This document shows, one piece after another, positions 60,801-63,800 of a stretch of 64,000 nucleotides of DNA. Source of the stretch: an uncultured Verrucomicrobiota bacterium (lineage in GTDB: Bacteria > Verrucomicrobiota > Kiritimatiellia > CAIQIC01 > Lenti-01). Positions within the stretch are counted from its first letter, which is position 1. Each line of letters begins with the position of its first letter. Made by a program: the position numbers. The stretch lies in contig CALKWZ010000031.1 of the NCBI GenBank assembly GCA_938003985.1, positions 4,173-68,172 of the forward strand. The letters run 5' to 3'.

Positions 60801-63800
60801 CGCATCGTCGAACGCCGCGAACGGCTGGCCTTCGCCGAACCCACGGGCAAGCCGGCCGGCACCGGCCCCCTGCCCATGATCGCCTCGAGCCGCGCGCCGC
60901 GCGCCGCCTACGTGCCGCCGGCGGGCGATCCGGTCGTCGCGGGCGCGGAACTGGACGTCGTCATCGCCGAGGAATCCGAAAAGAATCCCGGCCTCGAAGG
61001 CATCGCCAAGGTCGGCGGCCTGGTCGTCGCCGTCAAGGGCGCGACGACCGTCGGCGAGCGCGTCAACGTGCGCATCGTGGACCGCAAGGAGCGCATCGCT
61101 TTCGCCGAGCCCACCGGCCAGCCCGCCGGCACCGGCCCCCTGCCCGTCATCGAATCCAGCCGCCCGGCGCGCGCGCCGCGCCCGGCCTTCGTGCCTCCCG
61201 CCGGCGATCCGGTCGTCGCGGGCGCGGAACTGGACGTCGTCATCGCCGAACAATCCGAAAAGAATCCCGGCCTCGAAGGCATCGCCAAGGTCGGCGGCCT
61301 GGTCGTCGCCGTCAAGGGCGCGACGACCGTCGGCGAGCGCGTCAACGTGCGCATCGTGGACCGCAAGGAGCGCATCGCTTTCGCCGAGCCCACCGGCCAG
61401 CCCGCCGGCACCGGCCCCCTGCCCGTCATCGAATCCAGCCGCCCGGCGCGCGCCCCCCGGCCGGCCTTCGTGCCGCGCGCCGGCGATTCCGCCCCGCACG
61501 TGGTGCCCGGCGCCGTGATCTCCGCCACCATCGCCGAGCCGTCCAACAAGAATCCCGAAACCGAAGGCGTCGCCAAGGTCGCGGGCCTCGTCGTGTTCGT
61601 GAAGGGCGCCACGACTCCCGGCCAGACCGTCCACGTCCGCATCACGGACCGCAATCCGCGCGCGGCCAGCGGCGAGGTCACCAGCGACCCCGTCACGGCC
61701 GAAGCCCCGGCCCCGGCCCCGGCCACCCCCGCGCCGGCCGTCGTTCCGGAAGCGCCCGCGGCCCCCGCGGCCCCTTGATCGCAGCCCCCCGCCGAGGAGA
61801 ATCCCATGGCCAAAACCCTCACCAATGAACGCAACCTCCGCCAGCGCCAGGAAGCCATCGCGCGCGATTTGCGCCTGCTGAAACAGATGCGCCTCGTGGA
61901 ATGGGGCGCGGCGGCGCTCTTCGTCGCCGCCGGACTCCTGCTCAAGGCGTTCGGCGTGGAGGCCGCGCCGTTCGTGCTGTTCCTCGGCGGATTCCTCGTC
62001 TTCCTGGCGCTGGGCCACGAAGCCCGCCGCCGCGAACAGCTCGAAGAGCTGGCCGATACCGAACAGATGCGCGGCGCCAAGGAAGCGGTGGCCCGGTTGC
62101 TCGACGACAAGCTCGCCAACGACCACTACGTCCTCAACGACCTGCACCTGAAGGTCGGCCGCGAAAAGTGCTGGATCGACCATCTCGTCGTCGCGCCCTC
62201 GGGCATGTTCGTCATCAACACGATGAACTGGGAAGGCAAGATCGTCGGCGACACCGCCAAGCAGTCCTACGTCTGGAAGATCCGCGCCCCGGACGGCAAA
62301 ATCCGGCCCGCGCGCAATCCGGTGGGCCGGGCCCTGCGCGAACGGCGCATCCTGTGCAACTGGCTCAAGGGCACGAACCTGATCTGGGAGCGCGTTTTTC
62401 CGCTGGTGGTGCTGGCGAATCCGAACGCGGACATCCAGGTGACCAACGCCGGCACGAAGGTGATGACGCCCGAAAAGGCCGTCACGTTCATCAACGATTT
62501 CTGCTTCGAAAAGCCCGTGCTGTCCAACGCCGAGGTCGAAAAGCTGGCCCAGGGCCTGAACGAACACTCCGGCGAGGCCTGAGCGGACCGGAGCGCCCGG
62601 CGTGGCCAAGATCCTCCGCAGCGAAAACAGCCTGCTGAAACGCCAGCTCGCCATCGGGCGCGAATTGTCCCGCGGCGGGGCCATGCGGATTCTGGCGTGG
62701 GCCGCGGCTCTCGTCGTCGCCGGGCTGCTGGGCGCCCATGCCCTCCTGACCCACACGTATCACGGGGCGATTTTCGGCGCGCTGGCGCTGGTGTTCGCCG
62801 CCGGCTACGAGGTCCATCTGCGCGAAATCGCCGTTGAAAGCCGCAATCTCGAAGGCGGGCGCCGCGGGGAGCAGAAAATGGCCGAGCGCCTCGCCGAGCA
62901 GCTCGCCGACGACCACGTGATCCTCAACGACCTCGAACTGCGCGTCGCGCACGAGCGGGCGCAGATCGACCATCTCGTGATCGGGCCGTCCGGCATCTAC
63001 GTGATCGAATCGAAGTTCTGGGCCGGCACGCTTTCCGGCGACGTCCGCGACGCCCAATGGACGCAGAAGAAATCCAACGGCTCCGTCCGGCACGTGAAGA
63101 GCCCGGTCCAGCAGTGCGAGCGCCAGCGGCGCATGTTCATCACCCTGCTGGCCGCCCGGGTGCCCGAGGACCGCATCCACGCCTTGGCGGTGTTCACCCA
63201 CCCCGCGGTGAAGCTGCAGATCGCCAACGGCCAAGGGCGCGCGTTCCACGTCCGCGACGCCATCCGCTTCATCAACGACCGCTGCTTCGAGCCGCCGGTC
63301 CTGACGCCCGCCGCCGCCCTCGAACTGGCCGAACGGATCAACCGCGGCCAGGCTTGAACGGCGCCCGCCGTTCTGCTACACGATGAGCGGGGCCGGGGCG
63401 ACGCCCCCGGCCCGGAGAAAATGCGTTGCCCATGTCCCGTCCAGCCGGCGCCGATGCGTTGCGGATTCCGTTGCGGCGGAAATTCGCGCTGCTGGCCGCC
63501 TATGCGCAGGAGCGCCTGGCCCGCCAGGTGCGGGCGGTGGCGTTCATCACCGCCTATTTGGCCTTGTTCCAGTTGTTCGTGCTGAAAGCGCCGATCGCGG
63601 AGTTCGCCCAGATCGCCTTGGGCATCCTGGCGGTGATCGTCGGGCTGGCGCTGTTCATGGAGGGCCTGTTCCTGGCCATCATGCCGCTGGGCGAGCGCTG
63701 CGGCCTGCGCTTGCCGGCGCGCGTCGGCATCGGCGCGCTGGTGGCCTTCGCGGCGGTGCTGGGCCTCACCGCCACCTACGCGGAACCGGCCATCGGGTTC

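Follow-up and report, generated by a model that had tools for sequence, protein, structure and literature searches.

We describe a tandem pair of membrane-anchored NERD-domain genes in which the downstream copy retains a complete nuclease active site and the upstream copy has lost it in all recovered orthologs, the two following a TRAM-repeat gene in a conserved three-gene cassette. The pair lies in 64,000 nt of DNA from an uncultured Verrucomicrobiota bacterium (Kiritimatiellia; Lenti-01; positions 4,173-68,172 of contig CALKWZ010000031.1, assembly GCA_938003985.1); this whole stretch is referred to as the window, and positions are those of the window unless another locus is named. Patterns in the orthologs and in single-copy relatives are consistent with one early duplication, inactivation of the upstream copy at the base of its clade, purifying selection to retain the inactivated protein, and descent of the module from an operon that ends in a ComEC-like gene.

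Copy 1 (61806..62582, + strand, ATG start, 258 amino acids) and copy 2 (62602..63357, + strand, GTG start, 251 amino acids) were found where an initial sequence-only reading had placed tandem frames of these lengths, at 61806-63357. Its assignment of both to NERD held, since against Pfam NERD (PF08378), with its gathering cut-off of 22.1 bits, the scores were 58.4 bits for copy 1 (E 1.2e-15) and 91.1 bits for copy 2 (E 8.6e-26), and the two are indeed paralogs, sharing 35% identity over their whole length (E 1e-43). The block that it had singled out, IDHLV(I/V)xPSG(I/M)(Y/F)VI(E/N), is present in both (copy 1, IDHLVVAPSGMFVINTM; copy 2, IDHLVIGPSGIYVIESK), but writing the last position as E or N hides the fact that the Glu is catalytic and is lost in copy 1. 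The G+C fraction at third codon positions (GC3) is 0.88-0.90 in the two NERD frames and 0.41-0.73 in overlapping alternative open reading frames, which indicates that the NERD frames are the coding ones. The long overlapping frames at 60171-62756 (-), 60908-62119 (-), 62491-63249 (-) and 61901-62638 (+) combine high G+C at first codon positions with lower GC3 and were set aside as artefacts of DNA with ~70% GC.

The two copies differ in the conserved core, as defined by alignment of 35 single-copy relatives, throughout which G-x-x-G-E (first core helix), N-D, Q-x-D-H, E-x-K and P-x-x-Q do not vary. Copy 2 keeps E90, D110, Q121, D123, H124, E136, K138 and Q171, as do 121/121 of its orthologs, and its active-site block (Q121-I-D123-H124...E136-S-K138; 62962..63015, + strand), read directly from the translated gene, occupies positions that are invariant in the wider family. 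The corresponding block of copy 1 (D125-H126...N138-T139-M140; 62178..62225, + strand), placed by alignment with copy 2 and the single-copy family, is degenerate, and from the catalytic set D110, D123 and H124 alone are kept (here and below in copy 2 numbering). About 120 ortholog clusters were recovered for each copy, and the losses run through all those of copy 1 (n = 121): E90 is replaced by Lys and Q121 by Trp in 121/121, E136 by Asn in 117, Asp in 3 and His in 1, and Q171 by Arg in 106 and Lys in 15, with K138 giving way to Leu, Met, Phe, Val, Ile or His and Lys found in 0/121. The replacement residues (K, W, N, R) are nearly invariant and make basic what had been an acidic metal site. 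Because the most basal duplicated lineages (loci L125, L127, L037 and L038) share identical copy 1 losses, inactivation can be placed at the stem of the copy-1 clade. Copy 2 thus carries the conserved acidic and Lys residues of a competent PD-(D/E)xK nuclease and copy 1 does not. The sequence-only reading had set this check beforehand, holding that loss from both copies would make a nuclease role implausible; the full set in copy 2 and its loss in all orthologs of copy 1 also support its suggestion of a functionally diversified pair. Judged by these residues, copy 2 is probably a catalytically competent nuclease, and copy 1, by the same token, is a NERD-fold protein that should not be classed as a nuclease.

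The fold has been kept in spite of these losses. AlphaFold2 (AF2) models of the two copies have mean predicted local distance difference test scores of 85.1 and 85.2 and predicted template modelling scores of 0.73 and 0.74; in each, a helix at the N-terminus precedes a helical hairpin, the second helix of which is prolonged into a stalk, and a core rich in beta structure is followed by helices at the C-terminus; both match the same PD-(D/E)xK nucleases and have a PD-(D/E)xK-type fold. A PDB sequence search with the copy 2 profile returned nothing meaningful. In 26 of 30 distinct loci copy 1 is the better conserved of the two; across loci, identity to the window averages 73.3% for copy 1 and 68.0% for copy 2. 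The ratio of nonsynonymous to synonymous substitution rates (dN/dS) is low and uniform, at 0.19-0.25 for copy 1 and 0.21-0.41 for copy 2. With its fold kept and purifying selection on it equal or stronger, copy 1 is best described as a conserved pseudo-nuclease, and since it is conserved and under selection with replacement residues that are nearly invariant, a retained binding or structural role seems probable.

The pair belongs to a larger group of single-copy proteins. Copy 2, searched against 1.84 billion representative proteins, recovered 3,672 relatives, many of them ~250 amino acids long, aligned from residue 1 and sharing the N-terminal motif, the hairpin and an intact E-(T/S)-K; the named single-copy members are metagenome-assembled genomes (MAGs) of Kiritimatiellae. 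By its MA(K/R)(I/V)L..E.SL N-terminus and its two-helix hairpin this is a sequence-defined subfamily distinct within NERD, here termed two-transmembrane NERD (2TM-NERD), with named members so far from Kiritimatiellota only, and both copies match its family profile (A4) from position 1 to ~250. In a neighbor-joining tree the copy-1 and copy-2 clades are sisters nested in the single-copy family, with mirror-image internal topologies and a longer stem for copy 2, and a single early duplication is shown by this computation. The single-copy protein of locus L041, which has an intact site and lies in a ComEC operon of the kind described below, is 52% identical to copy 1 and 38% to copy 2; as it is closer to copy 1, the upstream copy appears to have kept the ancestral sequence save for the catalytic residues, with copy 2 the one that diverged.

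Each NERD copy begins with a basic tail of ~29 residues followed by two adjoining hydrophobic segments that AF2 models as a helical hairpin, in keeping with the N-terminal membrane anchors first proposed from the sequence. By Kyte-Doolittle hydropathy the segments cover residues ~33-51 and 51-69 in copy 1 and ~30-48 and 55-73 in copy 2. The hairpins are thus placed at 61893..62018 (+ strand; ~residues 30-71, by Kyte-Doolittle with AF2 helices 10-48 and 54-102) and at 62689..62808 (+ strand; ~residues 30-69, by Kyte-Doolittle and AF2). AF2 also gives N-terminal residues 3-6 as a beta strand, which, if it pairs with the NERD sheet, would set the N-tail and the NERD domain on one side of the membrane. 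Mean counts of Lys plus Arg are 7.0 in the N-tail, 1.7 in the hairpin and 2.9 after it for copy 1, and 7.5, 0.8 and 2.5 for copy 2, and across both copies and the single-copy family they range over 6-7.5, 0.8-2 and, in the 15 residues that follow the hairpin, 2.5-3.4. Under the positive-inside rule this distribution predicts an N-in/C-in arrangement in which the NERD domains would face the cytoplasm.

Directly upstream of copy 1, and first in the cassette, is a gene for a membrane-anchored, 527-amino-acid TRAM-repeat protein (60195..61778, + strand), which has a single hydrophobic helix at its N-terminus and five TRAM domains separated by Pro-rich linkers; like the ComEC link described below, it falls outside the positions that the sequence-only reading had covered. 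Pfam TRAM (PF01938) matches the protein in 5 stretches (E 1.5e-32), and for one unit there is a match to 1yvc, the structure of an archaeal stand-alone TRAM (E 3.4e-5). The TRAM-plus-linker units are encoded by a 279-bp tandem repeat present in 3.1 copies (60624..61487, + strand; Tandem Repeats Finder, 87% matches), and there are 4-6 TRAM units in duplicated-form loci and 2-4 in single-copy loci. Repeat number shifts fast between close strains, since contigs with an identical copy 2 protein (L001-L004) hold 4, 5 or 6 units; the array of L004 contains a frame break.

The cassette was surveyed in 33 species-level genome loci, all of them Kiritimatiellia or "Verrucomicrobia" MAGs, together with further metagenome contigs. 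Every surveyed locus with enough upstream DNA had the TRAM-repeat gene, the inactive NERD gene and the active NERD gene in this order on one strand with short gaps. The adjacency and order of copies 1 and 2 are fixed, with 15-40 nt between them and a methyltransferase gene in L125 as the sole interruption. Genes on either side vary, his genes and glyA flanking the cassette in one group and radical-SAM, metA and gpsA genes in another that includes the window, and because gene order is constant while the flanks differ, the three genes can be regarded as a conserved unit. In the window 27 nt separate the TRAM stop from copy 1 and 19 nt separate copy 1 from copy 2. A Shine-Dalgarno-like motif, read from the sequence, precedes each NERD start (GAGGAG at 61794..61799, + strand, 6 nt before the ATG; GGAG at 62590..62593, + strand, 8 nt before the GTG). 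A terminator scan of the + strand found no terminator-like site between the cassette genes, such promoter and terminator scans being uninformative in high-GC DNA. Two GC-rich hairpins without a U-tract lie between the copy 2 stop and the next gene (63359..63431, + strand; RNA fold -39.1 kcal/mol, z -2.0); the scan made no call there, and it is possible, if weakly so, that they mark the end of the transcription unit.

In the single-copy relatives, which belong to other, sister lineages of Kiritimatiellota, the upstream TRAM-repeat gene is accompanied by downstream partners. All 7/7 single-copy loci have an operon of TRAM, NERD, two small genes (s1 and s2) and ComEC, in which genes abut or overlap and for which the flanks differ each time. 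The s1 and s2 products are small conserved membrane proteins of 66-86 amino acids without a Pfam match, carrying the motifs LNT.G..Y..WL...LPC.PF (s1) and MERG...SPIW.SN..YY (s2), and were present in all seven of these loci and nowhere else in the data examined. Their frames lie between NERD and ComEC (L126:9759-10169; L128:9758-10186; L044:8753-9166; L043:8160-8591; L041:2817-3068 and 3988-4248). In L041, the lineage with the NERD most like copy 1, a cation-efflux (CDF) gene stands between s1 and s2 (L041:3065-3970). The ComEC-like proteins (L041:4263-7670; L043:8575-12066; L044:9156-12545; L126:10159-13539; L128:10170-13658) are unusually long, at 1,126-1,163 amino acids, and carry Pfam Competence and DUF4131 domains. 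In their C-terminal region, which resembles a metallo-beta-lactamase (MBL) domain, MBL motif II (H-x-H/D-x-D-H) is replaced by S-P-x-P-E-R or similar in 5/5 operon ComEC proteins examined and is absent anywhere in them, with a weak Lactamase_B match in one of the five; given this replacement, the nuclease domain of these ComEC proteins is probably inactive. As a background control, ~75 generic NERD loci with a match to the NERD core alone, drawn from a metagenome scan with the ETK-W pattern, were inspected for neighbors, and a TRAM or ComEC gene was found near 0 of ~75, which argues that linkage to TRAM and ComEC is specific to the 2TM-NERD subfamily. An adjoining upstream TRAM-repeat gene was found in the window and in all related loci with enough DNA, but the window does not show the full operon (form A), as s1, s2 and ComEC are not immediately downstream.

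The reading that we favor, tentatively and with slightly less than an even chance of being right, is that the cassette encodes a membrane-tethered, cytoplasm-facing nuclease made up of a catalytic copy 2 and a structural copy 1, with the TRAM protein as partner and ComEC-imported DNA as its likely substrate. Copy 2 would be the catalytic subunit of a membrane-tethered PD-(D/E)xK (NERD) nuclease and copy 1 a non-catalytic partner, its former metal pocket now basic, that positions the substrate or the enzyme. The cassette would be co-transcribed, the 4-6 TRAM domains would keep single-stranded nucleic acid at the membrane to be cleaved, and DNA arriving via the ComEC channel would be cut on its cytoplasmic side, to be processed or salvaged. 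Within the lineage of the window, NERD was duplicated once, the upstream copy lost catalysis immediately and the cassette became separated from comEC. Imported DNA is suggested as the most likely substrate because the module descends from the ComEC operon.

Several observations weigh against this proposal. Neither the 64-kb window nor the 6-10 kb around each duplicated locus contained a relative of ComEC, s1 or s2, and a ComEC link in the window's organism today is one that we infer in the face of this absence. The orientation of the TRAM anchor is weakly resolved, the C-side being more basic in 17 duplicated-form loci and the N-side in 1 with 9 tied, and the flanks being ambiguous in single-copy loci. 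The closest characterised TRAM proteins bind RNA and neither single-stranded nor double-stranded DNA in vitro (PMC5572242), and the sole NERD protein with genetic evidence for nuclease function, TbLrRP2, acts on RNA (PMC12702573). EndA, NucA and the MBL domain of ComEC work outside the membrane (PMC8579336), and NERD is here predicted to be cytoplasmic. Finally, in the NERD literature consulted we did not find a biochemically demonstrated nuclease activity for any NERD domain protein. A wider claim is doubtful: that in the Kiritimatiellota a multi-TRAM membrane protein, a 2TM-NERD nuclease and two small membrane proteins are hitherto unnoticed accessory proteins of ComEC, which with a nuclease-dead ComEC would make up a new kind of machine for DNA uptake and processing, and that in one lineage the nuclease became an obligate heterodimer of active and inactive copies while the module moved away from comEC.

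An alternative explanation could be a membrane-tethered complex for RNA processing or decay, in which TRAM would bind single-stranded RNA, copy 2 would cut it and copy 1 would present the substrate or act as a scaffold, much as in membrane-bound RNases or the trypanosome pair of NERD and DEDDh proteins. TRAM is an RNA-binding domain, the window's units resemble 1yvc, and it is archaeal stand-alone TRAMs of this type that bind RNA and not DNA (PMC5572242). In Trypanosoma brucei the membrane-anchored NERD protein TbLrRP2 is needed for rRNA cleavage and requires its conserved charged residues, working with a membrane-anchored nuclease-like partner, TbLrRP1, whose own catalytic motifs are dispensable, and membrane anchoring is required for full function (PMC12702573). 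As compared by description, this is the likeness to our pair; the differences are that the trypanosome partner is DEDDh exonuclease-like, that each protein has a single transmembrane helix, the setting being the eukaryotic endoplasmic reticulum and nuclear envelope, that the substrate is large-subunit rRNA, and that neither TRAM nor ComEC is involved (PMC12702573). Vertical inheritance and strong conservation of the cassette among housekeeping genes, with no adjoining ComEC in the window lineage, would also suit a role in RNA metabolism. Such a role would not account for the five-gene ComEC operon in 7/7 single-copy loci, which lacks an obvious RNA rationale, ComEC being known as a DNA channel only; moreover the cassette shows no consistent linkage to genes of RNA metabolism, and an Rfam scan gave no match near it. 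We therefore consider an RNA substrate unlikely, while still the strongest of the alternatives. A further analogy, and an analogy only, is offered by YacL of Bacillus and Staphylococcus, which is membrane-anchored. This uncharacterised, putative RNase also joins a nuclease domain with TRAM (PMC4615653), but the nuclease is PIN and not NERD and a single TRAM is fused to it in one polypeptide.

It could also be that the paralogs form no complex, with copy 2 acting alone as a homodimer like its single-copy relatives and copy 1 having taken up a separate non-nuclease role in nucleic-acid binding, membrane organisation or regulation. The near-invariant K, W, N and R of copy 1 do imply selection for some new property. 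There is also a precedent in SmdA of Staphylococcus aureus, which resembles copy 1 in being a functionally important membrane-anchored protein with a cytoplasmic NERD-like domain in which a number of the best conserved residues are missing and which has a non-nuclease role (PMC9040797). By its description SmdA differs in having one transmembrane helix, ~300 amino acids, a monocistronic gene confined to Staphylococcaceae and a function in cell division and morphology, with no active paralog, TRAM or ComEC adjoining (PMC9040797). The heteromer, for its part, is suggested indirectly, by the constant adjacency of the genes, their mirror trees and the purifying selection that acts on the inactive copy. 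Independent roles for the two proteins nevertheless seem improbable, as the genes have kept their order and their 15-40 nt spacing, are never separated save by the L125 methyltransferase insertion, and have trees that mirror each other. Heterodimers of active and inactive paralogs are moreover common in the PD-(D/E)xK nuclease superfamily: in XPF-ERCC1, Mus81-Eme1 and the alpha/beta crenarchaeal tRNA-splicing endonuclease a duplication was followed by catalytic death of one copy, which was kept for a structural or substrate-positioning role. Those pairs differ from the present one in being soluble, in not being NERD proteins, and in that their heterodimers were shown experimentally whereas ours is inferred.

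Defence against phages or plasmids, by a nuclease degrading foreign DNA as it enters at the membrane, is more improbable still. NERD domains do occur in PglW (BREX/Pgl), MAD6 and the NERD+UvrD candidates, both copies match these weakly, and a gatekeeper role would suit a link to a DNA entry channel. Genes of restriction-modification type are also seen at two divergent loci: in L125, which is the most basal of the duplicated lineages, the NERD copies have a gene for an N6/N4 DNA methyltransferase between them (L125:993-1826; E 1e-44) and an R.Pab1-like restriction-enzyme fragment directly downstream (L125:2723-2935), and in L127 a protein with an Mrr-like restriction-endonuclease domain and two large RHS/YD-repeat proteins are encoded downstream of the pair (L127:11723-18798). 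Assignment to PglW, MAD6 or NERD+UvrD systems was nonetheless rejected, as the PADLOC and NCBIfam matches are partial and sub-threshold, confined to the NERD region and scoring 18-59 bits against cut-offs of 460 and 990. The flanks contain no kinase, helicase or other system partner gene. The cassette is vertically inherited, with mirror trees, a low and uniform dN/dS and a position that is conserved next to gpsA, metA, his and glyA genes, and a tblastn search of 72,556 plasmids and 50,697 phages found no full-length homolog, with similarity limited to the NERD core at <34% identity. The passing suggestion of defence in the sequence-only reading is for these reasons not borne out at the window locus. 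There the neighbors are housekeeping genes and not a mobile or defence island: upstream and divergent on the - strand are genes for a radical-SAM/BATS protein (ThiH/HydG-like; 58470-60089), homoserine O-succinyltransferase (HTS; 57452-58414) and glycerol-3-phosphate dehydrogenase (~56457-57460), a synteny that recurs in L005-L007. Downstream, a gene for a multi-pass membrane protein runs off the window (63434-64000), giving a 188-amino-acid fragment without a Pfam match; it is not conserved beside the cassette in other loci.

The ComEC operon invites comparison with competence systems. In the comE operon and in systems with EndA or NucA, a membrane-anchored nuclease and an anchored nucleic-acid binder are likewise encoded with ComEC or act with it (PMC8579336, PMC6299819); the TRAM gene sits where comEA sits upstream of comEC in comEA-comEB-comEC, and motif II of the operon ComEC is degenerate as in Streptococcus pneumoniae (PMC8579336). 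The competence nucleases differ in being of beta-beta-alpha-Me or MBL type and not NERD, and ComEA is a helix-hairpin-helix protein in place of TRAM. The window lineage differs further from competence systems in that its NERD domain is predicted to be cytoplasmic and not extracellular, and in that comEC does not adjoin the cassette. That NERD replaces the inactive MBL nuclease of the linked ComEC and degrades the non-transported strand outside the membrane, as EndA does in S. pneumoniae, is very unlikely and was largely rejected: motif II is substituted in all five operon ComEC proteins, with a single weak Lactamase_B match, and S. pneumoniae pairs a similarly substituted ComEC with the separate membrane nuclease EndA, but both EndA and the MBL domain of ComEC work at the outer face of the membrane (PMC8579336), while the 6-7.5 Lys and Arg of the N-tail and the two-helix hairpin place NERD in the cytoplasm by the positive-inside prediction.

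Membrane-anchored NERD proteins as such are known. Single-domain NERD proteins with predicted transmembrane helices go back to Grynberg and Godzik (2004), whom both PMC9040797 and PMC12702573 cite, and N-terminal anchoring of NERD proteins has been described as common in bacteria (PMC12702573). The window pair is like the single-domain transmembrane proteins of Pfam NERD in domain, PD-(D/E)xK fold, size class and N-terminal anchor, and unlike generic NERD proteins its subfamily has its own N-terminus, a two-helix hairpin, an upstream TRAM gene and a duplication into active and inactive copies. What is new is the fixed pairing of an active with an inactive copy, the TRAM partner and the ancestry in a ComEC operon. 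A literature search found no paper naming ComEC together with NERD, and the single paper with both ComEC and the TRAM domain was a taxonomy study.

NERD domains are widespread, yet reported functional data on them are scarce (PMC9040797, PMC12702573). A conserved pair of active and inactive copies is a natural experiment that marks the residues that matter and points to a probable two-subunit enzyme. The TRAM-NERD-s1-s2-ComEC operon ties NERD to a DNA-uptake channel for the first time in the searchable literature and, in a phylum that has received little study, provides testable candidates for how incoming nucleic acid is handled at the cytoplasmic face of ComEC. Should RNA be the substrate instead, bacteria would have in this pair a counterpart to the NERD ribonuclease of trypanosomes.

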